Source: Nostoc sp.
GTDB taxonomy: Bacteria; Cyanobacteriota; Cyanobacteriia; Cyanobacteriales; Nostocaceae
Length of the DNA: 64,000 nt
Assembly: GCF_036916855.1 (NCBI RefSeq)
Contig: NZ_JBALFE010000029.1
Reading direction: 5' to 3' (one strand)
Position 1 is the first letter of the stretch; the number at the start of each line of letters is the position of its first letter. Below, in pieces: positions 12,332 to 28,785 of the stretch. The notes under the pieces were generated by a model. The model was not told the DNA's origin. It saw only the letters and a program-made list of their open reading frames with translations, and made no database searches. A program made the position numbers and the translations under genes.

Positions 12332-13018
12332 CTAAAGGCTATCTGGATCAATATTTAATTCTCGGAGTTTAGCAGCTAATCTTTGCGCTTTCTCTTCTGC
12401 GGCTTGTCGTGCAGCTGCTTCCTCTTCATGAGTTAACAGTATTTGACCTGTAGCTGGATTGTAAAAACGTAGTTTTCCTGCTTCCAGGCGTAACTCTAGC
12501 CCCAAAACTTCACTGGGTATAGATACTGTACCATCTGGCAGGGTATTGGCTGCCACTGGGAAATAATTCCCATCGACCAAGTGTAAACCCTGGAGTTGGG
12601 GATTGAGATAATCGCCTGTAGGATCGTATTGGAAATATTCACGCACTCCCAGAAAGGCGTAAATTCCTTTCTTTGCACCTTGATCTTTGCTACGGGTGGT
12701 TTTTGAGGTGATCTCTAGAACAAAATCTGGGGTTTGATTATTTTCTTCCCAGGTTTTGTAAGAGCGTCTGTCACAGTTTTCCACTCCAAACACCACAAAT
12801 ACATCTGGAGCGACAACTGATTCTGGATAACCTTTTTCGTAATAAATAAATAGATTACCAGCGACGTATACATCTGGGTGATTTTGAAAATAAATTTCCA
12901 GCACAGTGCTAGCGTATACGAGACACTTGCGCTGTAAATCACCTTCAGCCATTGGCTTACCATCCTCATCTGGGTACTCAATCGGGGTAATGGGGATATA
13001 CTCTACTGAGGCTGTCAT
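12332..13018 (-). CDS. Uma2-family (DUF820) putative PD-(D/E)xK endonuclease
   Basis: 228 aa. YPDEDGKPMAEG near the N-terminus, then VAPDVFVVFGV...PDFVLEITSKTT...KKGIYAFLGVREYFQYDP, and a charged helical tail. Confidence 0.85.
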   Translation of the reverse strand: MTASVEYIPITPIEYPDEDGKPMAEGDLQRKCLVYASTVLEIYFQNHPDVYVAGNLFIYYEKGYPESVVAPDVFVVFGVENCDRRSYKTWEENNQTPDFVLEITSKTTRSKDQGAKKGIYAFLGVREYFQYDPTGDYLNPQLQGLHLVDGNYFPVAANTLPDGTVSIPSEVLGLELRLEAGKLRFYNPATGQILLTHEEEAAARQAAEEKAQRLAAKLRELNIDPDSL

Positions 13019-14668: not shown

Positions 14669-15670
14669 TTAGAAATTCATCTCAGCAGCTTGAACTTTTT
14701 CAACCTGCTTCTTCTTCAGCACCAGCATAACTTGGGCTAACATTACAAGAGCGATGAACGCAATCATCCATTTGACTCTGGAAGCGTCTTGCAGTACGAT
14801 TTCTCCATCTGCTTGACCGAATCCACCGACATTCGGGTTGCTGGTTAAAGCATCACCAGTCTTAACTGCTTGCCCTTCGGAAACAACCAATTCTGGCCCT
14901 AAAGGAATCGTATCAACAACAACATCACCAGATTCAGGTTGGATGTTGACTAGATATTTAACGTTACCGTCTCCATCTTCCTCTTTGGCAATCTTGGTAA
15001 TTGTGCCAGTAGCGGAAGCATTGTAAACAGTGTTATTGCTCTTTTCGCCTGTGGGATAAACTTGTCCGCGTCCCCGATTACCACCTACGTGAACTGAATA
15101 TTTACCGAAGTGGATGTTTTTGTCGGTTGCGGGGTTGGGAGAAAGAACTGGGAAGACGATTTCCTGATACTGTTCACCGGGTAAAGGGCCGACGATGACG
15201 ACGTTATCTTTGTCTTCGCTGTAGGGTTGGTAGAATGTGTCGCCAACTTCTTCTTTAAGTTCTTCGGAAAGACGGTCTTCAGGAGCAATCTTAAAGCCTT
15301 CGGGTAGCATTAGTACTGCACCGACGTTCAAGCCAACCTTAGAACCATCAGCACCAACTTGCTGGGCACTGAGATCGTAAGGGATTTTCACCACAGCTTT
15401 GAATACAGTGTCAGGTAGCACCGATTGGGGAACTTCCACTTCTGTAACCTTGGCCGCTAGGTGACAGTTGGCACAAACAATTCGCCCTGTTGGTTCGCGG
15501 GGGGTTTCGGGATAGGTTTGCTGTGCCCAAAAGGGATAGGCGGCAGCTGATTGGGGAAGGGCTAGATCGCTGGTGAAGTAAAATGTCACGGTGGCGATCG
15601 CTATGAGCAATGTTTTTACAATCGCTCTAGCACTGCGAGTTAACCTCGCTGTTAGGAAAACATTTCTCAT
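14669..15670 (-). CDS. petA: Cytochrome f (apocytochrome f precursor)
   Basis: The mature N-terminus YPFWAQQ follows a signal peptide. Heme motif CANCH and a C-terminal TM anchor are present. I moved the start to MRNVF (15670) because the upstream 10 codons are STRR repeat. Confidence 0.95.
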
Positions 15671-15692
15671 CTCTATAAGGGCGACAATTGAA

Positions 15693-15769
15693 TTAGTCAT
15701 TAGTCATTGGTCATTAGTCATTAGTCATTAAGCCCTGAACGAAGGACAAATGACTAAGGACTAATGACA
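15693..15769. repeat. STRR-type heptamer tract forming an imperfect inverted repeat in the petC-petA intercistronic spacer
   Basis: (TAGTCAT/TGGTCAT) x5 at 15693-15730 faces acaaatgactaaggactaatgaca at 15744-15769. Confidence 0.8.
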
Positions 15770-15775
15770 AAATTA

Positions 15776-16315
15776 TTAACTCCACCAAGGTGCATCACCG
15801 GTGCGGAAGTCGGTTTCAGTCCAAGGGGTTAAAACGATCTTGTCGTCATTGACGCTGGTATGGGCTAAAGCCAGAGACAGAGGTGCTGGTCCCCGAACAA
15901 CTTTACCAGTTTCGTCATACTGGGAACCATGACAAGGACACTTGAATTTGTTCTCAGCAACGTTCCAGGGGACGACACAACCTAAGTGGGTGCAGATGGC
16001 GTTAATGCCATAATCTTTGATCGCCTCTTTGCTTTCTACCACAATATAGGTAGGATCTCCCTTAAGTCCTTGGACTAGGCTGCGATCGCCTGGATTCCGG
16101 TTTTCTAGAAATTTAGTGACACTAACATCGTTACCTAGCTCGTCTTTTGCCGTTGTACCACCACCAGCACCACCAGCAGCAGGTGGAATAAAGTACTTGA
16201 CAACGGGATACAATGCACCCAGAGCCACTCCAGTGACAGTCCCAAAAGTGAGCAGATTCATGAACTGACGACGACCCATATCGGGCACGTCTGCTGATTC
16301 AGAAAATTGAGCCAT
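15776..16315 (-). CDS. petC: Cytochrome b6f Rieske iron-sulfur subunit
   Basis: 179 aa. N-terminal TM segment ([11 protein letters not shown]) and Rieske boxes CTHLGCVV and CPCHGSQY. It is directly upstream of petA. Confidence 0.95.
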
Positions 16316-16544
16316 AATCTACGCGCTCTTTGTGTATTTTGTTAAGCATTTTGACAAAAGTACTAGTACTTGAGGAACTCTTGTCTAAGTCGAAATGCTA
16401 GCGCTCACAACGATGCCATACTTCTTTGTTCCAAGATATATTTAGCATCTTTTCTGTTAGCATTACATTTCTTTATATCCTTATCATACTGGAGTCACGG
16501 AACTTAACATCATAACTAAATGTAAAATCTGATTGAGAAAAGCT

Positions 16545-16853
16545 ATGACAGGACAGGAATTACGCCAGATGTTGCTTGAGAAGTGGGGATATTCTTACGA
16601 TGTCCAGTTCCGGCGGGCACAGGGAAAGATATTTTTGCAAGTAATGTGGAAATATCTGGAGCAAGCTTCTTTTCCCTTGAGCGAGGCTGAGTACCAAGAG
16701 CATCTTGATAGCATTGCCAATTATCTTCATGCCTTGGGTGGGTCAACACAGGTACAAACTTTTATTGCCCAAACACGCGATCGCCCCCGGCTCGGTAAGG
16801 CTGTTAGCATTCCTCTAGATTTGGGTGAACGCTCTTCAGAATGGATATTATGA
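16545..16853 (+). CDS. Conserved cyanobacterial/plastid-type hypothetical protein (DUF3067-like)
   Basis: Start chosen at MTGQELRQMLLEKWGYSYDVQFRR...IFLQVMWKYLEQASFPL. The DUF assignment is from memory. Confidence 0.7.
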   Translation: MTGQELRQMLLEKWGYSYDVQFRRAQGKIFLQVMWKYLEQASFPLSEAEYQEHLDSIANYLHALGGSTQVQTFIAQTRDRPRLGKAVSIPLDLGERSSEWIL

Positions 16854-16925
16854 CACGCTATTGCATTAACATGAATAAAATTCTGAGTAATTACAGTATT
16901 TTTGATCCAAAAATACCATAACGTG

Positions 16926-17261
16926 CTATAGAATTCTTTTGCCGACTGCTACATCTCTATCTGGCTGAATTAATACAACTTCTCCATCGTCTAGAACTAC
17001 TCCCAAGACTAAAACTTCTGAGATAAAATCGGCAATTTGACGAGGTGGAAAGTTAGTAACAGCTAATATTAATCTGTTGATTAATTCCTCTTGCTCATAA
17101 AGTTTAGTAATTTGGGCACTAGATTTTTTAATGCCCAAACTGCCAAAATTTATCCATAATTTATAAGCTGGTTTTTTAGCTTTAGGAAATTCTTCGACTT
17201 TGATGACTTTGCCAACATGAATCTCAACTTTTTCAAAGTCATCATAACTAACTTGTCTCAT
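16926..17261 (-). CDS. tRNA-binding domain protein (CsaA/EMAP-like)
   Basis: 111 aa. VEIHVGKVIKVEEFPKAKKPAYKLWINFG...SAQIT...GVVL is the OB-fold tRNA-binding domain pattern. Confidence 0.85.
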   Translation of the reverse strand: MRQVSYDDFEKVEIHVGKVIKVEEFPKAKKPAYKLWINFGSLGIKKSSAQITKLYEQEELINRLILAVTNFPPRQIADFISEVLVLGVVLDDGEVVLIQPDRDVAVGKRIL

Positions 17262-17305
17262 TTACTTGGAAGATGAGATTTTTTGTAATTGGAGCAATGC
17301 GACGA

Positions 17306-18121
17306 TCATTTACCTGTGAGTTTCACCAGTCCAACACCACCGAAATAAAGCCCTAAAACTGCTCCTGCTAAAAGACTTTGAGTCAGGGGGTCAGTAGAAG
17401 GTGTAAGAACAGCTCCTAAAACTACTGCTCCCATAATCACGTAACGCCAACCAGAAACCATCCGTTCTGACGAGACAATATTCAAGTTACCAAGCAACAG
17501 TTGGATGATGGGAATTTGAAATGCTAAACCAGTGCTGAATAACAGTAGCAGCACAAATTCAAAATATTTATCAATTGACCAAAGTTGTTCAACTACATCT
17601 GCTCCGTAGCTGATGAAAAATTTCAAAGCTGCGGGGATAAGGAGTAAATAGGCAAATACTAACCCCGCCGCAAATAGCACACTCGAACCCAAAACCACAG
17701 GCCCCAATAAACGGCGTTCGCGGCGAGTTAGTCCTGGAAGCACAAACTGGATAATCTGGTAAAGAATGAAAGGACTAGTAAGTACAAAGCCAGTGTAGGC
17801 TGCCACTTTGAGGGAGACAAAGAAATACTCTCCGGGTGCAAGTTGGAGAAATTTTACTCCTTGTGCTGGAACCTCAAGTAGTTGGACAATTGGCTTAACG
17901 GCAAAGAAACAGCCAATAATACCCACCGCTACGGCAATCAGCGAATAAAAAATTCGCAGCCGCAACTCTTCTAGGTGGTCGAAAAGGGACATTTCGACTT
18001 CACCTGGCAACTCATCAAGAGGATCGGTGTCTGAGTTGCCATATTCTTCTGGGTCGATGTTGGGAACGTTTACAGTATCTACGTCTTGTGAAGGCGTCAC
18101 GTCGCTTCGCTCCGAATTCAA
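17306..18121 (-). CDS. tatC: Twin-arginine translocase subunit TatC
   Basis: 271 aa. [15 protein letters not shown] signature and six TM segments. The acidic N-terminal extension begins at a TTG; a GTG at 18103 is an alternative start. Confidence 0.9.
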
Positions 18122-20085: not shown

Positions 20086-21423
20086 ATGCTCCTAGATTTA
20101 GAAAGATTTTATCAGGCTTGCAATCCGAGCAGACCTCTAATCATAGGAAATGCCAGCGATCGCAGGTACTATATCGATTTTGCTGCGGTGCGGGGTGGTA
20201 AAATCATTGAAGCTTTGCAGCGCACGATCGCTCGAATATCGCCGGATGTACCAACTTGTCAGCTATTTACAGGACATCTCGGCTGTGGGAAATCAACGGA
20301 GTTGTTGCGGCTGAAAGCTGAGTTAGAAGTGCAGCAATTTCATGTAGTTTACTTTGAGTCTACCCATGTCTTAGAAATGGCAGATGTGGATGTGACTGAT
20401 ATTTTGTTGGCGATCGCTGGTCAGGTGAGCGAAAGCCTAGAAGCCATGAGAATCAGGCTCAAACCTGCCTATTTTACTAAGTTGTTTGGTGAACTTGTCG
20501 ATTTCTTGCAGACACCAATTGACCTTGGGGTAGAAGCAGAATTGTCTGTGGGAATTGCCAAAATTACAGCTAAAACTAAAGAGAGTCCCCAATTGCGGCG
20601 GCGGTTAAGAGATTATCTAGAACCGCGAACAGCAAATATTTTACAGTCAATTAATCAAGAATTGCTAGAACGTGCCATCAAGGAACTGAAAACCAGGGGC
20701 AAAAAAGGATTGGTGGTCATTGTTGATAACTTGGATAGAGTGGCAATTCGACCTTTACCATCGGGGCGATCGCTACCAGAATACTTATTTATTCAGCGAG
20801 GTGAACAGTTACGCAAACTGAATTGTCATGTAGTCTACACTATTCCCTTAGCCCTGACCTTCTCCAACGATAGCGCCGAACTTCAGCATCGTTTGGGAGG
20901 AGGAGTCGCCCCGAAAATGTTACCGATGATACCTGTACGTCTGCGCTCTGGGGAGATTTTCCCTCAAGGGCTAGCAATGATGCGGCAAATGGTTCTAGCT
21001 AGAGCTTTTCCAGACATTTTGGCTAGCGATCGGTTAGGCTTAATTACAGAAGTGTTTGATAGTCTGGAAACCTTAGATCGGTTGTGCCTGATTAGTGGTG
21101 GTCATGTGCGCGACTTGCTAGGGTTGCTGTTTGACTGTCTGCGAGAACAAGATCCACCCTTTGAGCGGGATTGTGTCGAATTGGTGATTCTAAGACAGCG
21201 AGATTACCGAGCCAACGCTATCGACCCCCATGAGTGGGAATTAATCTTTCAGGTGGTGCAACAGCAGAGAGTTAGAGGTGATATAGAATACCACACTCTA
21301 TTGCGAAGTTTATTTGTATTTGAATACCGCGATCATCAGGGAGCTTGGTTTGCCGTCAACCCAGTTTTAGCAGAGACGGAAAAATTTAAATCATGGTTGA
21401 ACGACACCCACAAGCAGATATAA
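20086..21423 (+). CDS. P-loop NTPase (AAA/STAND-like ATPase), partner of the downstream giant protein
   Basis: 445 aa. Walker A is FTGHLGCGKSTELL, Walker B is GLVVIVDNLDRV, and a sensor-like ISGGHVRDLL follows. The last 31 nt overlap the next ORF. Confidence 0.8.
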   Translation: MLLDLERFYQACNPSRPLIIGNASDRRYYIDFAAVRGGKIIEALQRTIARISPDVPTCQLFTGHLGCGKSTELLRLKAELEVQQFHVVYFESTHVLEMADVDVTDILLAIAGQVSESLEAMRIRLKPAYFTKLFGELVDFLQTPIDLGVEAELSVGIAKITAKTKESPQLRRRLRDYLEPRTANILQSINQELLERAIKELKTRGKKGLVVIVDNLDRVAIRPLPSGRSLPEYLFIQRGEQLRKLNCHVVYTIPLALTFSNDSAELQHRLGGGVAPKMLPMIPVRLRSGEIFPQGLAMMRQMVLARAFPDILASDRLGLITEVFDSLETLDRLCLISGGHVRDLLGLLFDCLREQDPPFERDCVELVILRQRDYRANAIDPHEWELIFQVVQQQRVRGDIEYHTLLRSLFVFEYRDHQGAWFAVNPVLAETEKFKSWLNDTHKQI

Positions 21424-24400
21424 GAGCAGCCAACGAGCGTGCTTTAAGGAGTTTGGGGAGAGCAATTGCCCTTTCTAGCGGTCAATTCTCCCTGGTTTTG
21501 GTGTGCTGTAATTATCGAATTTTGCAAGAGCAAATGCTGCAACGACTCGAAGAAATTTCTTCAGGAGTACACCAAATTCAAAAGGTAGTTCTGCCGCATA
21601 ATGCTAGAAGCCTTTACACAAGTATCCATTTACAACTGGTAACCGCAGCTAATCCGCCATCGGCGTTGATGATTTTGGGTTTAGAGTCAGTAGATGGACT
21701 CGACGATTTACTGAGGTCTGTCAATCATATTCGGGATGAATTTCGCAAACGCCACCCATTTCCGATGATTTTGTGGGTGAATGAGGAAGTGTTGCAAAAG
21801 GTAGCGCGTTTAGCACCAGATTTTGCTAGTTGGGCGGCTACACCGATTCGGTTTAAAATGACAACTCAATCGCTGCTGCAATTTCTGCAACAGCAAACTG
21901 ACTCTTTGTTTGCCACAGTGTTACCAACCGATGCTGCACAACATCAACCTCCTCAAGTTGCAAAGCATTATTCCACTGTGGAGCAAGTCTGGGAACATAG
22001 CTATGAACTCCACTTTGCCATTAGAGAGTTGCACAATCGTGGTATTACCTTAGAGCCAGAATTACACGCTAGTTTAGAATTTGTTTTTGGTCTAGATAAT
22101 TATATTAGCGATCGCATTAATACAGCTTTAAACCATTTTCAACATAGCTTACAAGTCTGGCAAAAGTTGGAGGAGATAGGGAATGGGGGAGCAGAGGAAG
22201 ATGAGGGAGCAGGGGGGGATGAGGGGATATTTTCTTCCCCTACGCCTCCTAATCGCCCATCTCCACTGCTTCTGCGACAGGGAGTCTTGCTGTTTTATAT
22301 TGGGCTGTGTTATTGCCGTTTTGCAGAGCAAAATCAAACAGAAAACCGCCGCCATTGGTACACCGCTAAATCTTATTTTCAGCAATGCTTGAATATCTTG
22401 CAGGTGGCTGGGCGTTTGGATATAGTTGCTGGATTTATTAATCAACTCGCTGAGGTTTTGCAATATCTGCAAGAGTGGGAAGAATTGCAGACTGTTGCTC
22501 AAAAGGCTTTGGAGTTACATCAAACTTATGGTACTCAAATCCAATTAGCTTGTGACTATGGTTTTCTGGCGCAAGTGGCTGTGCAGCAGTCGCGGTGGGT
22601 ACAGGCGAGTATATTAGCACACGTATCACTGCTAAAATTAGGTGAAGCGCAAAAGCACAACGACCCTCATAACTGCTTATTCCCATTACTGCTGGGGCAA
22701 ATTTACTATTTAGTGTTGGCGAAAGCGCAGCGAAATTTAGGTGAGCAAGAAGTCGCTCGTGAATACCTGGACAAGGCAACAAATGAACTACCAGCAGCCT
22801 TAGAAAGCAGTGCCCATCAATACGATGCCCATCGTTATATTCGCTTATTGCGGACACTGCGATCGCTGTACTTTGAAGAAGGACGCTATTTGGAAGCCTA
22901 TTACATTCGACAGAAACGGCGTTCTGTTGAGCAGCAATATGGTTTTCGGGCTTTTATCGGTGCAGGGCGCTTGCAACCCCAAAGACAGGCGACAAACCCA
23001 GCATTGATGTCACCTTCTGGTAGCAGCAGCGTCGCTTTAGAAATTACGGCTTCTGGTCGGGAGCGTGATATTAATAACTTAATTGGAAGAATTAGCCGCG
23101 CCGATCAAAAGTTGACGGTGATTCACGGTCAATCGGGGGTAGGTAAGAGTTCTACCGTGACGGCGGGTTTAGTTCCAGCATTACAAAATCGAGCCATTGG
23201 TGATCAAATAGCTGTGCCTGTGGTGTTGCAAGTTTATACCGATTGGGCACGGGAATTAGGAAAATCTTTGAGTGAGGCGATATCTAGTGACGCATCCCTT
23301 GCTGTCTACGCTGATATCATGCCAGAAGCAGCCATTGAACCAGAAGCTTTACCCTACTCTGCCACACCGATTACCATCCTCAGAATTTTACGACAACTAA
23401 AAGAAAATGCCGATCGCCATCTGATTACAGTTTTAATTTTTGACCAGTTTGAAGAATTTTTCTTTGGTTATAGCGATCGCAATCAAAAGCAAGAATTTGA
23501 TAAATTTATTAGCGACTGCCTCAAAATACCCTTCGTCAAAGTTATCCTTTCCTTGCGAGAAGATTATTTACATCGGTTATTAGACTTTAAACATCTTTCG
23601 GCGCTAGAAGCCATTAATAATAATATTCTCGACAAGCATATTCGCTATCAGTTAAATAATTTTTCGCCAGAATATGCTAAAGCAATTATCCGAAAATTGA
23701 CCGAGCGATCGCAGTTTAATTTGGAACCTGCTTTAATTGATGCCTTAATCGAAGATTTATCAACAGAATTTGGAGAAGTCCGCCCCATAGAATTACAAGT
23801 TGTGGGAGCGCAAATCCAAGATGAGCGCATTACTACACTAGAAGAATATCAGCCATATAGGCCCAACAAACTTATTGAGCGATATCTTAAGGAACTGATT
23901 AAAGACTGCGGCCCAGAAAACGAACGAGCCGCGTTACTCGTCTTATACTTATTAACAGATGAAAGCAACAACCGACCTTTTAAAACTCGTGCTGAGTTAG
24001 CAGCACAGCTAGCAGAGTTAGAAGATGCTGGCAAATTAGAGTTAGTCTTAGACATTTTAGTGCGCTCTGGGTTAGTGGTACTATTCCCTGATGTACCAGA
24101 ACGCTATCAACTGATTCACGATTATTTAGTAGACTTAATTCGCTACCTGCAACAACAGGAATCTAGCTTACAGGTACAACTAAATCAGTTGCGCTACAAG
24201 GTAGAACAAAGTAAAGCTGAGATTGAGAGACTTAAAAGCGAACTTAGCCAAAATAAGCAGCATTTCAAATTGGTAGATCCTCATCCGCAACAGGGTTTGG
24301 ATTTATTAACAGAATTGCGGGAGTTACACAAACGAGAAGAATTAAGTCAGTTACAAATTGAGCAATTAAGAGCTGAACTAAAGGAAAAAGAGTTAACAGC

Positions 24401-26561
24401 TAAACTTGCAGAAAGCCAAAAGAAACAAAGACTCAGTGAAGCTCAATTAAATCGGTCGTTAAAAATCGCCCTAACTGCTTCCGTTCTCGCCATATTAGGA
24501 TTAAGCGTTTCCATCGTGACAGCAGTAGATAGCGAAATTAAAACCCTCAGTGCATCCAGTGAAGCCCTCTTTGCCTCACAAAAAGGTATTGATGCTCTAA
24601 AAGAAGGTTTAAAGGCGGGAAGAAAATTACAACAAACAATCTGGGTAGATTCTTATACAAAGGAGCAAGTACAGACAGCACTTTATCAAGCAGTTTCCGG
24701 GTTAAGAGAATATAACCGTTTAGAAGGGCATCTATCTGGGGTAAATAGTACTACATTCAGCCGCGGTCGCTCTTTAATTGCCTCAGCCAGTGCGGACACT
24801 ACAATTAAACTTTGGCGTCCTGATGGTAGCTTGTTCAAAACGTTATCGGGGCATGAAGATGTAGTTAATAGCGTCAGTTTCAGCCCAGATGGTCAAATCG
24901 TTGCTTCTGCCAGTCAAGACAAGACGGTAAAACTTTGGAGTCGAGAGGGTCAATTGCTTGCTACTCTATTAGGACATCAAGCTGTGGTAAATAGTGTCAG
25001 TTTCAGCTCTGATGGTCAGATTATTGCCTCGGCGAGTACAGACAAGACGGTAAAACTCTGGAGTCGGGATGGTAAATTACTCAAAACCTTGCAGGGACAT
25101 GATGGTGCAGTCTTAGGCGTGGCTTGGTCGCCTGATGGTCAAACTATTGCTTCGGCGAGTGCTGACAAGACGCTGAAATTGTGGAGTCGTGATGGTAAAT
25201 TACTCAAAACCTTGCAGGGACATGAGGATGCAGTAAAAAGTGTAGCTTGGTCGCCTGATGGGAAAGCGGTAAGCAAAGCCATGCCCAAAGGGCTTATCGC
25301 TTCTGCTAGTTTAGACCAGACAATCAAACTGTGGAATCTGGAGGGTAAGCTAGTGCGAACCTTATCGGGACATAGTGCTGGAGTTACCAGCGTCAGTTTT
25401 AGCCGCGATGGTAACACGATCGCTTCCGCAAGTACCGATGAGACAATCAAACTTTGGAGTTCTGAAGGTGTGTTGCTGGGAACCCTGAAGGGACATAATA
25501 ATTGGGTGAATAGCGTCAGTTTCAGCCCAGATGGTCGCACCCTTGCTTCCGCCAGTCGGGACAAAACTATTAAACTTTGGCATTGGGACGATGTGCTATT
25601 GCGAAAGCCCAAAGCCGATAATGATGACTGGGTAACTAGCATCAGTTTTAGCCCAGACGATCGCACCTTAGCAGCAGCAAGTCGAGACAAAACCGTAAAA
25701 ATTTTCAGTCGTGATGGTAAACTAAACCGTACTTTCACGGGGCATCAGGGTCAAGTTTGGGGAGTTAGTTTTAGCCCTGATGGTCAAGTAATTGCTTCGG
25801 CTAGTAAAGATAAAACAGTGAAGCTTTGGAGTGGTGACGGTAAACTGCTCAACACCTTACAGGGTCATAATGATGCCGTCTTGGGTGTTGCTTGGTCGCC
25901 TGATAGTCAAGTAATTGCCTCGGCTAGTAAAGATAAAACAGTAAAACTTTGGAGCCGCAACGGTAAACTACTCAACACCTTGCAGGATCATCAAGATGCA
26001 GTGAATTGGGTAAGTTTTAGCCCAGATGGTAAATTACTAGCCTCAGCCAGTGATGACAAAACCGTGAAAATCTGGAGTTTAGAGGGTAAATTGCTATACA
26101 CCTTAGCTGGTCATAGCCGCCGGGTAAATGGGGTTGCTTGGTCGCCTGATGGTCAGGCGATCGCTTCAGTTAGTATTGATAGCACGGTCAAACTTTGGAG
26201 CCGGGACGGTCACCTGCTAAGTAATTTTGCCGGAGATGGTGATAGTTTCATTAGTGTCAGTTTTAGCCCCGATGGCAAGACTCTGGCAGCTAGCAGTGAT
26301 GACAAAGTGAGGATTTGGAACCGAGAAGGGACGTTGTTGATTGCTTTGAAAGGTGATAAAGGTGAGTTAACCAGCGTCAGTTTCAGCCATGATGGCAAAA
26401 CTTTGGCTGCGGGTAGTGGCAATGGCACAGTAATTTTCCAAGATTTAGCAGATATCAAGCTCGAAAAATTACTGGCACAGGGTTGCCATTTGCTACATGA
26501 TTATTTGCAGACTAATCAGAAGGTAATGAAAAGCGATCGCGCCTTATGTTCTGGTAGGTGA
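21393..26561 (+). CDS. Giant multidomain STAND NTPase: N-terminal alpha/beta module, TPR-like repeats, P-loop NTPase, coiled coil, one TM helix, 14 WD40 repeats
   Basis: 1,722 aa. Walker A is VIHGQSGVGKSS (~23127-23153) and Walker B is VLIFDQFEEFF. A heptad coiled coil spans ~24150-24460, followed by a hydrophobic helix (LKIALTASVLAILGLSVSIVTAV). There are 14 blades of the form GHxxxVxSVSFSPDGxxIASAS.DKTVKLW (24727-26440). Confidence 0.9.
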   Translation: MVERHPQADIRAANERALRSLGRAIALSSGQFSLVLVCCNYRILQEQMLQRLEEISSGVHQIQKVVLPHNARSLYTSIHLQLVTAANPPSALMILGLESVDGLDDLLRSVNHIRDEFRKRHPFPMILWVNEEVLQKVARLAPDFASWAATPIRFKMTTQSLLQFLQQQTDSLFATVLPTDAAQHQPPQVAKHYSTVEQVWEHSYELHFAIRELHNRGITLEPELHASLEFVFGLDNYISDRINTALNHFQHSLQVWQKLEEIGNGGAEEDEGAGGDEGIFSSPTPPNRPSPLLLRQGVLLFYIGLCYCRFAEQNQTENRRHWYTAKSYFQQCLNILQVAGRLDIVAGFINQLAEVLQYLQEWEELQTVAQKALELHQTYGTQIQLACDYGFLAQVAVQQSRWVQASILAHVSLLKLGEAQKHNDPHNCLFPLLLGQIYYLVLAKAQRNLGEQEVAREYLDKATNELPAALESSAHQYDAHRYIRLLRTLRSLYFEEGRYLEAYYIRQKRRSVEQQYGFRAFIGAGRLQPQRQATNPALMSPSGSSSVALEITASGRERDINNLIGRISRADQKLTVIHGQSGVGKSSTVTAGLVPALQNRAIGDQIAVPVVLQVYTDWARELGKSLSEAISSDASLAVYADIMPEAAIEPEALPYSATPITILRILRQLKENADRHLITVLIFDQFEEFFFGYSDRNQKQEFDKFISDCLKIPFVKVILSLREDYLHRLLDFKHLSALEAINNNILDKHIRYQLNNFSPEYAKAIIRKLTERSQFNLEPALIDALIEDLSTEFGEVRPIELQVVGAQIQDERITTLEEYQPYRPNKLIERYLKELIKDCGPENERAALLVLYLLTDESNNRPFKTRAELAAQLAELEDAGKLELVLDILVRSGLVVLFPDVPERYQLIHDYLVDLIRYLQQQESSLQVQLNQLRYKVEQSKAEIERLKSELSQNKQHFKLVDPHPQQGLDLLTELRELHKREELSQLQIEQLRAELKEKELTAKLAESQKKQRLSEAQLNRSLKIALTASVLAILGLSVSIVTAVDSEIKTLSASSEALFASQKGIDALKEGLKAGRKLQQTIWVDSYTKEQVQTALYQAVSGLREYNRLEGHLSGVNSTTFSRGRSLIASASADTTIKLWRPDGSLFKTLSGHEDVVNSVSFSPDGQIVASASQDKTVKLWSREGQLLATLLGHQAVVNSVSFSSDGQIIASASTDKTVKLWSRDGKLLKTLQGHDGAVLGVAWSPDGQTIASASADKTLKLWSRDGKLLKTLQGHEDAVKSVAWSPDGKAVSKAMPKGLIASASLDQTIKLWNLEGKLVRTLSGHSAGVTSVSFSRDGNTIASASTDETIKLWSSEGVLLGTLKGHNNWVNSVSFSPDGRTLASASRDKTIKLWHWDDVLLRKPKADNDDWVTSISFSPDDRTLAAASRDKTVKIFSRDGKLNRTFTGHQGQVWGVSFSPDGQVIASASKDKTVKLWSGDGKLLNTLQGHNDAVLGVAWSPDSQVIASASKDKTVKLWSRNGKLLNTLQDHQDAVNWVSFSPDGKLLASASDDKTVKIWSLEGKLLYTLAGHSRRVNGVAWSPDGQAIASVSIDSTVKLWSRDGHLLSNFAGDGDSFISVSFSPDGKTLAASSDDKVRIWNREGTLLIALKGDKGELTSVSFSHDGKTLAAGSGNGTVIFQDLADIKLEKLLAQGCHLLHDYLQTNQKVMKSDRALCSGR

Positions 26562-27157: not shown

Positions 27158-28090
27158 ATGCTTGTATTCTTTATCCACGGTGTCAACACTCAGAATTCTA
27201 GATATGCTGACGTACTCATAAAAAAAATCCACAAAAAACTAGCAATCCCTGCAAACTTTTACTCAAGTTTTTGGGGGAACTTATTCAACAATAAGAAACA
27301 TCAAACTATTGGATGTATTGAGAAGGATTTTTCTAGATTTTGTGAACATCATAAAGAATATAAAGGTTCGTATGATGATATTTACAGATACAAAAAACGA
27401 AGAAATGAGATAATCAGTAATTTTTTAGGTGATTTTTTAATCTATCAAAATCCCGATCGCGGTAAAGCAATACGTAAAACTATCGTTGAACAACTGAGTC
27501 AGTTCTTAAATGACCACTCAAATCAACAAGAAATTCATTTTATTGCTCATTCTCTAGGTAGTTTAATTCTGTGGGATCTCATTTTTTCAGATACTTTAGA
27601 CAATGATGATCCAGCTTTTATTTTTCGTGAGAAACTAAATCTGTTAAATTTAGCTAGCATTACGACCTTGGGTTCTCCTCTCTTATTCCTTAAACAAATG
27701 CTAGATATTGATTTCTCGGTTATCAATTATTATTTTAAAAGTTCTAGTAAAGAAGAAACTGCTGGATTGCAGAAGTTAAGATGGGTAAATATAATTCATT
27801 CCTCTGACTTAATTGCCTATCCTCTCAAAGCTGCTATAGAAGATGAAATTAGCTCAGATTTATTATTCTGCGATCATTATGTGTGGCAGTATGCAAACAA
27901 GATGGAGAAAACATTAAACAATATGGGTCAATCAGATATGGCAATGGTTGTTGGAGCAGAAGATGCTCATTCTTCGTACTTTTACGATAATCTGGATGGT
28001 GATATTACATCAGGTATTATTGCATATAATTTGTTAGGAAAGACACAAAAACTTTTAGAAAGGTGTGTCCATCCAAGACCTATGGGATGA
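27158..28090 (+). CDS. Alpha/beta-hydrolase-fold serine hydrolase (lipase/esterase-like)
   Basis: 310 aa. It opens with MLVFFIHG (strand plus an oxyanion-type HG). Nucleophile elbow is IAHSLGS (27541-27562). Candidate Asp is in IIHSSDLIAYP and candidate His in GAEDAHSSYF. No signal peptide. The gene is conspicuously AT-rich with no full HIP1 site. Confidence 0.7.
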   Translation: MLVFFIHGVNTQNSRYADVLIKKIHKKLAIPANFYSSFWGNLFNNKKHQTIGCIEKDFSRFCEHHKEYKGSYDDIYRYKKRRNEIISNFLGDFLIYQNPDRGKAIRKTIVEQLSQFLNDHSNQQEIHFIAHSLGSLILWDLIFSDTLDNDDPAFIFREKLNLLNLASITTLGSPLLFLKQMLDIDFSVINYYFKSSSKEETAGLQKLRWVNIIHSSDLIAYPLKAAIEDEISSDLLFCDHYVWQYANKMEKTLNNMGQSDMAMVVGAEDAHSSYFYDNLDGDITSGIIAYNLLGKTQKLLERCVHPRPMG

Positions 28091-28161
28091 TTGAAGCCAT
28101 AGACAAAGCGTACATCTTGGTAGCATTGAGTGAAGTACCCGTCAGCAAGGGAGCAAGGGCG

Positions 28162-28785
28162 ATGTACGCAACCGTCACACAACCACTGACTTTTGAAGAG
28201 TTTCTTTCCTGGGACGATGGTTCAGGCAGAGAGTTTGAGCTATTGGATGGGATTCCCATGCCATTATCAGAACCAAATGCAAATCATGAGGATTTGATCG
28301 AGCGACTGTGTGCCTACCTAGAAAATCACTGCCAAGAAAATGACCTGCCTTACGTGTCGCGCCAGTCCAAGCAGGTTCGGCTCAAAACAGCACCAGGAGA
28401 AAAGGAAAAAAGCCGGAAAGCAGATATTGTCATATTTGCTAGAGAAGAATGGCAGAGGATGAAAACTAGCTCTAGTTCTGCTGCTGCATATATTCCACCA
28501 CCCGGAATCATTGAGGTCGTTAGCAACAACTGGAAGGACGACTATCTGACAAAACTTGCTGAATATGAAGACTTGGGCGTTTTCGAGTACGTCATTGTGG
28601 ACTATGCTGCTTTTGGTGGCATTCGGTTCATTGGCTCTCCCAAGCAGCCAACCATTACAATCTACCAACTTGAAGGTGCAGAGTATTTACCCCCAAAGGT
28701 GTTTCGAGGGCAGGATCGAATTGATTCTAGATTGTTTCCAAACATTCCCTTAACTGCTGAACAGATTTTTGCAATGAGTCGCTGA
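28162..28785 (+). CDS. Uma2-family (DUF820) putative endonuclease
   Basis: Start moved to MYATVTQPLTFEEFLSW. PD-(D/E)xK-like core: KADIVIF...IEVVSNNWKDDYLTKLAEYEDLGVFEYVIVDY. It is a close paralog of the copy at 37635-38255. Confidence 0.85.
   Translation: MYATVTQPLTFEEFLSWDDGSGREFELLDGIPMPLSEPNANHEDLIERLCAYLENHCQENDLPYVSRQSKQVRLKTAPGEKEKSRKADIVIFAREEWQRMKTSSSSAAAYIPPPGIIEVVSNNWKDDYLTKLAEYEDLGVFEYVIVDYAAFGGIRFIGSPKQPTITIYQLEGAEYLPPKVFRGQDRIDSRLFPNIPLTAEQIFAMSR

Follow-up and report, generated by a model that had tools for sequence, protein, structure and literature searches.

In animals, plants, fungi and bacteria alike, STAND and NLR proteins hold a central place in immunity and cell death; to our knowledge those described are cytosolic, single-chain sensors. 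Here we report the analysis of a gene pair from Nostoc sp. (NCBI RefSeq assembly GCF_036916855.1, contig NZ_JBALFE010000029.1) that appears to build a STAND switch in another way. The pair lies in a stretch of 64,000 nucleotides, referred to throughout as the window. Its first gene (20086..21423, plus strand) encodes a soluble KAP-like or ORC/Cdc6-like P-loop ATPase of 445 amino acids (aa). The second (21393..26561, plus strand) encodes a protein of 1,722 aa, called the giant below, which carries in order an N-terminal module that resembles an AAA+ protein lacking its P-loop (the N-module), TPR repeats, an nSTAND1 domain, a coiled coil, a predicted transmembrane helix and 14 WD40 repeats.

The nSTAND1 domain (PF20703) takes its name from Kaur et al. 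(eLife 2021; PMC8195603), who also note it in some of the EACC1 systems described in their paper of 2020. The giant shares with the described nSTAND1 systems the central PF20703 NTPase, a C-terminal WD40/TPR 'sensor' and an N-terminal adaptor-type module, and like them belongs to a family expanded in filamentous cyanobacteria. It differs in that its N-module is probably a degenerate AAA+ core rather than an EAD- or Death-like adaptor, in that a separate, co-inherited KAP-like ATPase is obligatory in most members, and in that a transmembrane helix divides the STAND domain from the sensor; the window member is, moreover, core, syntenic and slow-evolving. The initial annotation of the window had credited these domain types to the 2020 paper; the naming of nSTAND1 belongs to the 2021 paper. 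The pairing of ATPase and N-module was not found described in the accessible parts of either paper. Literature searches returned no experimental or functional study of either protein or of the pair, as the annotation had also supposed.

The closest concept is the prediction by Kaur et al. 2021 (PMC8195603) that active and inactive STAND proteins form hetero-multimers. In such pairs (with GT4 or HEPN effectors) and in iSTAND and iSTAND2 (Kaur 2020, 2021), an eroded NTPase is predicted to hetero-oligomerise with an active one via a retained arginine finger, as we suggest for the N-module. There the inactive partner bears the effector, whereas here it is the active ATPase that does so (a TIR domain, in rare variants), and the inactive module is part of a protein with an active STAND domain of its own.

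The giant also recalls Apaf-1 and the apoptosome, with a STAND switch followed by two WD40 propellers and an output that would pass through a partner recruited by an N-terminal adaptor. Both are conserved single-locus genes under purifying selection, which suits a constant (endogenous) cue. Unlike Apaf-1, the giant has nSTAND1 and no CARD (searches of the giant gave no NB-ARC or CARD match), is predicted to span the membrane, and has an ATPase and not a caspase for a partner. Of the domains themselves, only the double WD40 propeller is common to both. With the antiviral Avs and bNACHT STAND proteins the family shares the oligomerisation logic and, in two variant loci (L095 and L175), a TIR effector. 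Avs and bNACHT proteins are single-chain, cytosolic, patchy in distribution and mobile, whereas the ATPase is a separate arm here and the window copy has no effector.

We propose, with a probability of roughly 0.5, that the pair forms a nucleoside triphosphate (NTP)-gated transmembrane STAND receptor, in which a pseudo-AAA+ N-module docks a dedicated ATPase one-to-one as the output arm. The analysis itself shows the anatomy, the AAA+-like fold of the modelled N-module, the conserved pairing with its matched copy numbers, the TIR variants, the recurring transmembrane segment and the purifying selection. We infer the physical docking, the direction of signalling, the location of the propellers and the biological role as follows. 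The locus would be a two-protein, three-NTPase-fold signalling machine, vertically inherited in the Nostoc chromosome. The giant would be single-pass, with N-module, TPR region, nSTAND1 switch and coiled coil in the cytoplasm and the two propellers across the membrane. The propellers would sense a cue and relay it through the transmembrane helix and coiled coil to nSTAND1, which would swap its nucleotide and oligomerise like other STAND proteins. The N-module, its P-loop apparently lost and its sensor-1-like and arginine-finger-like residues apparently kept, would then dock the ATPase one-to-one, much as active and inactive subunits pair in ORC and clamp loaders. The ATPase, TIR-bearing in rare relatives, would be the output arm. 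The window ATPase has no appended effector, so its output would be its own activity or its assembly on a target.

Pairing of the ATPase with the N-module

The two genes overlap by 31 nt out of frame (21393..21423, plus strand), the ATG of the giant lying at 21393 and the TAA of the ATPase gene at 21421-21423. In a genome scan with the N-module, the ATPase was found directly upstream of the N-module and overlapping its start in 80 of 80 Nostocales loci; by tblastn coordinates the two matches overlap in every one of these orthologous loci. The arrangement was also kept in all seven divergent chromosomal or metagenomic pairs examined (L084, two in L085, L088, L089 and two in L090), at 54-66% identity for the ATPase and 40-52% for the N-module. 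Overlaps of 4 nt occur among the paralogs. These pairs include a second Nostoc paralog (L088), a Crinalium pair with a 4-nt overlap (L089) and a Lyngbya array (L090). Plasmids of Acaryochloris, Nostoc and Calothrix retained the pair in four further loci (L171, L172, L174, L175). When metagenomes were scanned with only the ATPase as query, 57 of 80 loci showed ATPase, N-module and STAND in this order and on the same strand. The initial annotation had raised, as the point to check, whether the ATPase and N-module genes are systematically adjacent in other genomes, and these four sets of loci bear it out, with the pair kept across the cyanobacteria.

The copy numbers of the two elements match in multi-copy loci. 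In both L095 and L175 a giant with a double N-module comes after two ATPase genes, and in L090 a free-standing N-module gene of 165 aa overlaps an ATPase gene. The ATPase is thus coupled to the N-module specifically. A double N-module is likewise carried by another relative, P0165. Tandem ATPase-giant arrays were seen in Lyngbya aestuarii (L090, 1-13303), with three copies each of ATPase and N-module and one giant disrupted close to transposase genes, and in L085 (6695-16999), where frameshifts split the first pair, through decay or assembly error. One strain, Nostoc sp. UHCC 0302, holds five plasmid copies and at least one chromosomal copy (P0402). On Acaryochloris marina plasmid pREB2 the pair (L171, 9001-15800) lies among HicAB, RelE/ParE and integrase genes and a gene for a NACHT protein. 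Acaryochloris is unicellular, and the family would therefore not be confined to filamentous forms.

The TIR variants bear on the role of the ATPase. Both belong to two-ATPase loci, L095 (3358-10658) and L175 (12001-19508; Calothrix sp. NIES-4101 plasmid4), each of which encodes an ATPase, an ATPase-TIR fusion and a double-N-module giant with nSTAND1. In both, the second ATPase (~697 aa) has a C-terminal TIR domain, with TIR_2 matches at E 1.2e-31 (L095) and 1.5e-33 (L175). The fusion puts an immune-type effector on the ATPase arm and thereby suggests that the output passes through the ATPase.

In an exhaustive HMMER search with the N-module, 1,015 clusters (at 50% identity) matched with E <= 1e-3, and at the stricter limit of E <= 1e-10 there were 711. 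A word-indexed search had returned short proteins only, and the giants emerged from the exhaustive one. Among the best 150 matches, nearly all full-length members have, in the same order, the N-module, TPR and nSTAND1, often a coiled coil, and then WD40 repeats. A minority fill the C-terminal slot in another way, with TPR arrays (P0216, P0235), a second NACHT domain (P0173, P0211) or CHASE2 (P0251). Two apparent fusions were set aside: P0222, joined to phosphoenolpyruvate carboxylase, probably reflects an error of gene calling or assembly, and P0246, a candidate ATPase/N-module fusion, proved to be degenerate, a fragment and no clean fusion.

Anatomy and predicted topology of the two proteins

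The domain anatomy drawn in the initial annotation held throughout. It had described two open reading frames (ORFs) overlapping by 31 nt in different frames, which we found at exactly those coordinates, an ATPase with Walker A GHLGCGKST and Walker B VVIVDNLD, a P-loop-like N-module without a Walker A, and a giant that continues with TPR repeats, a STAND P-loop, a coiled coil, one transmembrane helix and 14 WD40 repeats. It had also seen no enzymatic effector domain in either protein, and our Pfam scans agree.

The Walker A of the ATPase lies at 20272..20298 (plus strand; aa 63-71) and the Walker B, VVIVDNLDR, at 20713..20739 (plus strand; aa 210-218). Residues G63, G66, C67, G68, K69, S70 and T71 are invariant across ATPase paralogs, as is the DNLDR motif, and paralogs from different cyanobacterial orders remain 56-66% identical with long invariant motifs. 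The Walker B context D-N-L-D-R is one that we take to resemble the KAP family motif. KAP proteins (PifA, Kidins220) reportedly, following Aravind et al. 2004, have transmembrane helices inserted within the NTPase domain. The window ATPase resembles this family in scoring above the PF07693 cut-off (KAP_NTPase, 26.8 bits against 20, over model positions 3-164 of 293 only). It differs in lacking transmembrane inserts and in its family-specific C-terminal half: the insert at aa ~95-205 has a charged, helical character and no transmembrane helices, and no hydrophobic segment was found anywhere in the protein (highest 19-residue Kyte-Doolittle value 1.19). Matches to ATPase_2, AAA_22 and AAA_16 fell just under their Pfam cut-offs. 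Foldseek matches of the ATPase structure model to ORC, TnsC, RdrA and BrxC are hints only, given a predicted local distance difference test score (pLDDT) of 53. Together the Pfam matches and the model point weakly to an ATPase of the ORC/Cdc6/ATPase_2 type. A distant relative outside the cyanobacteria is encoded on plasmid pACPOL1 of Acidisarcina polymorpha (L173, 8992-10263; 29% identity, hidden Markov model E 2e-29), with CHAT-domain, TPR and LRR proteins as neighbours and no N-module detected.

The N-module (21393..21917, plus strand; giant aa 1 to ~175) has no match in Pfam or NCBIfam. We aligned 28 diverse relatives and afterwards built an AlphaFold2 model, which reached a pLDDT of 80.5 and has a beta-alpha-beta pattern. 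Foldseek searches of the PDB with this model returned AAA+ cores only (probability ~1, E 2e-4 to 5e-3, TM-scores 0.4-0.5). The matches were to archaeal ORC1/ORC2/Cdc6, human and fly ORC subunits and the RFC/Elg1 clamp loader, and further to a delta-prime-like protein, ClpC, RuvB, IstB, TnsC and MuB. At the expected P-loop site, after strand 1, the N-module reads CCNY, and a G-x4-GK[ST] motif occurs inside the N-module in none of 150 representatives. With its Walker A missing, the domain would therefore be a pseudo-ATPase rather than an active AAA+ member. In the alignment N111, R114, A141, P142 and D143 are invariant and E98, N130 and R139 nearly so. By the secondary structure of the model, E98 ends strand 3 and N130 ends strand 4, the sensor-1 position, and R139, nine residues further on, falls at the arginine-finger (box-VII-like) site of ORC/DnaA-type proteins. 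R139 and R114 are thus candidate arginine-finger residues for a neighbouring subunit.

These features compare best with ORC/Cdc6 and clamp loaders. The N-module has its best structural matches there, the ATPase is weakly of the same class, and the N-module appears to have lost its P-loop while keeping sensor-1-like and arginine-finger-like residues. The differences are that sequence homology is not detectable and that the inactive subunit is here a domain of a STAND receptor. We considered whether the N-module might be a recent inactive copy of the ATPase or of nSTAND1 and dropped the idea, as hhalign comparisons gave no homology. The N-module is probably an old, degenerate AAA+-like module, a pseudo-ATPase, by its fold only and at modest TM-scores. 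It recurs as a free-standing gene and was never seen fused to an effector.

A helical and TPR region follows (21918..23027, plus strand; giant aa 176-545), with a TPR_12 match at aa 350-406 (E 3e-8) and other TPR models below cut-off. Within it, between the N-module and the TPR repeats, a low-complexity linker rich in Gly, Glu, Asp and Pro was noted at 22143-22292 (aa ~251-300). The nSTAND1 module (23028..24197, plus strand; aa ~555-928) matches PF20703 with 109.2 bits against a gathering threshold of 27.1 (E 4.8e-31, model positions 18-360 of 379). Its motifs are intact, with GQSGVGKSS at aa 579-587 (nt 23127-23153) and the acidic Walker B LIFDQFEEFF at aa 681-690 (nt 23433-23462). Two coiled-coil-like segments (24120..24452, plus strand; aa ~910-962 and ~969-1020) are heptad-like and free of Pro and Gly by a crude home-made heptad test, with weak Tropomyosin and LmuB matches besides. 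The 14 WD40 repeats (PF00400, 14 stretches; 24693..26492, plus strand) suffice for two propellers; some are 76-87% identical in DNA, with a 123-nt period (24848-26077). PDB sequence searches with the ATPase, the N-module and the TPR-STAND region gave nothing useful. Neither protein matched a characterised housekeeping family in Pfam, NCBIfam, PADLOC or PDB searches; such a match would, by the initial annotation, have counted against it. Pfam shows no adaptor or effector in the window pair; EAD profiles may be partly missing from that database.

A single predicted transmembrane helix, IALTASVLAILGLSVSIVTAV, lies between the coiled coil and the WD40 repeats (24465..24527, plus strand; aa 1025-1045; Kyte-Doolittle 2.24). 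A hydrophobic segment (Kyte-Doolittle >= 1.6) recurs between STAND and WD40 in 62 of 77 diverse relatives, conserved in presence and position but not in sequence. Among the 62, only one has a second hydrophobic segment, and the flanking charge is asymmetric, with 4.1 Lys and Arg residues on the N-terminal side against 2.1 on the C-terminal side and a net charge of +2.6 against +0.4. Lys and Arg are more numerous on the N-terminal side in 52 of the 62 (Wilcoxon p = 3e-10). This positive-inside pattern predicts a giant that is N-in/C-out, with the WD40 propellers in the periplasm or the thylakoid lumen. The orientation is the simplest one, given that the NTPase domains depend on nucleotide from the cytoplasm. 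P0251, in which the C-terminal slot holds CHASE2, an extracellular sensor domain, in place of WD40, fits an extracytoplasmic sensor. So does the listing of Synechocystis Slr1410 as a 'periplasmic WD-repeat protein' (PMC3479031).

Conservation of the window pair and alternative readings

Orthologs of the window pair evolve slowly. The giant is intact, at 1,691-1,761 aa, in all 69 orthologous loci with a complete gene, and both WD40 repeat number and gene length are constant among them even though some repeats resemble each other closely. Identity to the window giant is 83-90% and even along the protein, with a sole dip (0.55) at aa 251-300; the ATPase is 82-98% identical across Nostocales genera. 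Pairwise ratios of non-synonymous to synonymous substitution rates (dN/dS), calculated between the window and seven genera, were 0.04-0.08 for the ATPase, 0.06-0.11 for nSTAND1, 0.09-0.13 for WD40 and 0.14-0.24 for the N-module. The pair lies downstream of housekeeping genes (petA, petC, tatC and an SDR gene), and the petC-petA-tatC neighbourhood persists beside it out to Scytonema, Tolypothrix, Cylindrospermum and Anabaena. The conservation of the ATPase in these four genera (87-90% identity) equals that of PetC and exceeds that of PetA or TatC. The best sequence matches of the window proteins are in Nostoc species, and the window contains 60 copies of the HIP1 motif (GCGATCGC) where ~0.5 would be expected, nine of them within the locus. 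The initial annotation had taken HIP1 sites throughout as a sign of a resident locus, and both the counts and the synteny with petCA-tatC agree with it. The window pair has the profile of a core gene and not of an arms-race receptor.

The family as a whole differs from the window pair in having several paralogs per genome, tandem arrays, plasmid, toxin-antitoxin and integrase contexts and TIR variants. These features favour the main rival, a dedicated anti-phage or abortive-infection NLR-like system in which WD40/TPR repeats sense an invader, the STAND domain oligomerises, and cell death or arrest is brought about by a KAP-like ATPase (comparable to PifA) or by the membrane helix. The expansion in one Nostoc strain (five plasmid copies and at least one chromosomal), the arrays with frameshifts and transposases (L085, L090), the Acaryochloris plasmid copy among HicAB, RelE/ParE, integrase and NACHT genes, the TIR-fused ATPases of L095 and L175, and a C-terminal 'sensor' slot that varies between WD40, TPR, NACHT and CHASE2 all speak for such a system. 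Kaur et al. 2021 (PMC8195603) assign both nSTAND1 and KAP NTPases to predicted conflict systems and tie KAP NTPases to phage exclusion.

The evolutionary pattern of the window pair fits this rival poorly. The pair sits in a conserved housekeeping neighbourhood, and purifying selection is strong in all domains, including the presumed sensor, at a fixed gene length. In PADLOC-DB 2.0 the ATPase met only PDC-S20 (E 1e-5, 23 bits) and mad8 (E 2e-3), which are not significant, and the giant matched through its WD40 repeats only (HEAT-ARM_XIII model); the window lacks an effector domain. A scan of viral contigs found no relatives, and propellers predicted to be extracytoplasmic would miss cytoplasmic phage proteins. 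Of 589 STAND clades, only 198 have been scored as defence-associated (PMC13581612). We therefore regard an anti-phage function of the window pair as unlikely, although it is the strongest of the alternatives. The initial annotation's label of a conflict system is accordingly not settled: the core-like window pair and the lack of a PADLOC match speak against it, and the TIR domains, the plasmid, toxin-antitoxin and integrase contexts and the tandem arrays of the relatives speak for it.

A different division of labour would make the ATPase a dedicated chaperone or assembly factor of the giant, acting in its folding, insertion or oligomer turnover by MoxR-vWA or clamp-loader logic rather than as an output, with the giant as an envelope or septal scaffold. 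Translational coupling suggests a fixed stoichiometry, the extreme conservation of the ATPase fits a machine with many contacts, and the giant has scaffold-type repeats and a coiled coil and no enzymatic domain. A passive scaffold would not need the intact and highly conserved nSTAND1 switch, however, and there are clades of unpaired ATPases. Because TIR is fused to the ATPase in two loci, putting an effector on that arm, a pure chaperone role is the less likely, and we consider this reading improbable. That the genes are mere neighbours, or are co-transcribed without a shared function, could draw on the orphan ATPases and free-standing N-modules, but is very improbable and contradicted by the synteny results, since pairing persists at 50-60% ATPase and ~40% N-module identity, through duplication, plasmid transfer and changed flanking genes, with matched ATPase and N-module copy numbers in multi-copy loci.

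Several observations count against the transmembrane receptor with a docked ATPase that we prefer. Some 17-20 of the 80 ATPase metagenome loci have no adjacent N-module, and at least 10 of the unpaired ATPases form a clade of ~450 aa proteins, ~56% identical to that of the window and followed by aroE (shikimate dehydrogenase). Free-standing N-modules occur with no ATPase nearby (L001, L003, L086). The TIR fusion was seen in two loci only, and in one of 159 near-full-length ATPase copies from the chromosomal and metagenome sets (that of L095). No enzymatic effector domain, TIR included, was found in either window protein by Pfam scans. The AAA+ assignment of the N-module rests on one AlphaFold2 model, since hhalign comparisons of the N-module with the ATPase and with nSTAND1 revealed no sequence homology. 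The ATPase model is itself poor, with a badly modelled C-terminal half, because the alignment was too shallow. As to topology, the transmembrane segment is missing from 15 of the 77 relatives, and the propellers can therefore also work in the cytoplasm; the coiled-coil regions are rich in Lys and Arg anyway; and canonical WD40 propellers are usually cytosolic.

The unpaired genes have features of their own. The aroE-linked ATPase loci (L098, L101, L102, L104, L106, L107, L116, L118, L119 and L120) have no adjacent N-module or STAND gene, and these ATPases may serve N-module proteins encoded elsewhere. The free-standing N-module genes encode proteins of ~160-167 aa (L001, 8001-8480, in Calothrix sp. 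336/3; L003, 8001-8504, in Laspinema; L086/L087, 8001-8495), which retain the invariant residues of the domain and have no STAND gene nearby.

The flanks of the window pair were also inspected. The cluster of petA, petC (Rieske) and tatC is found a short way upstream (14669-18121, minus strand), and a DUF676-like gene and a Uma2 gene follow downstream. The DUF676 esterase-like gene (27158-28090) was considered as the missing effector and rejected, because it is present in only two of the 80 orthologous loci. Its end is overlapped by the Uma2 gene at 28063-28785 (plus strand), which together with a second at 12332-13018 (minus strand) flanks the wider region with Uma2-family (putative restriction endonuclease-like) genes. 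Promoter and terminator scans did no better than on shuffled sequence.

For the NTP-gated receptor that we propose, the role in the window would be most like that of Apaf-1, a conserved switch for stress, danger, cell death or envelope state rather than a fast-evolving pathogen receptor. We suggest tentatively, and with some doubt, that the family could be the first 'outside-in' NLR-like receptor family, with periplasmic WD40 repeats (CHASE2 in one relative) as sensor and a pseudo-AAA+ adaptor that captures an ORC-like, TIR-capable ATPase, and that the window pair could be its core, Apaf-1-like cell-fate or envelope switch. What sets the pair apart is the coupling of a putative pseudo-AAA+ domain to an ATPase, the predicted extracytoplasmic sensor, and a core member beside TIR-armed mobile relatives. 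The family adds to the STAND proteins a membrane-spanning layout with a sensor predicted to lie outside the cytoplasm, and the recruitment of a second ATPase through a dead AAA+ domain, if true, would be a new way of coupling sensor to output. Relatives in Nostoc and Anabaena that are open to genetic work carry the pair, and a slow, core Nostocales member alongside mobile, TIR-armed relatives offers a natural series for the conversion between immune and housekeeping machines.

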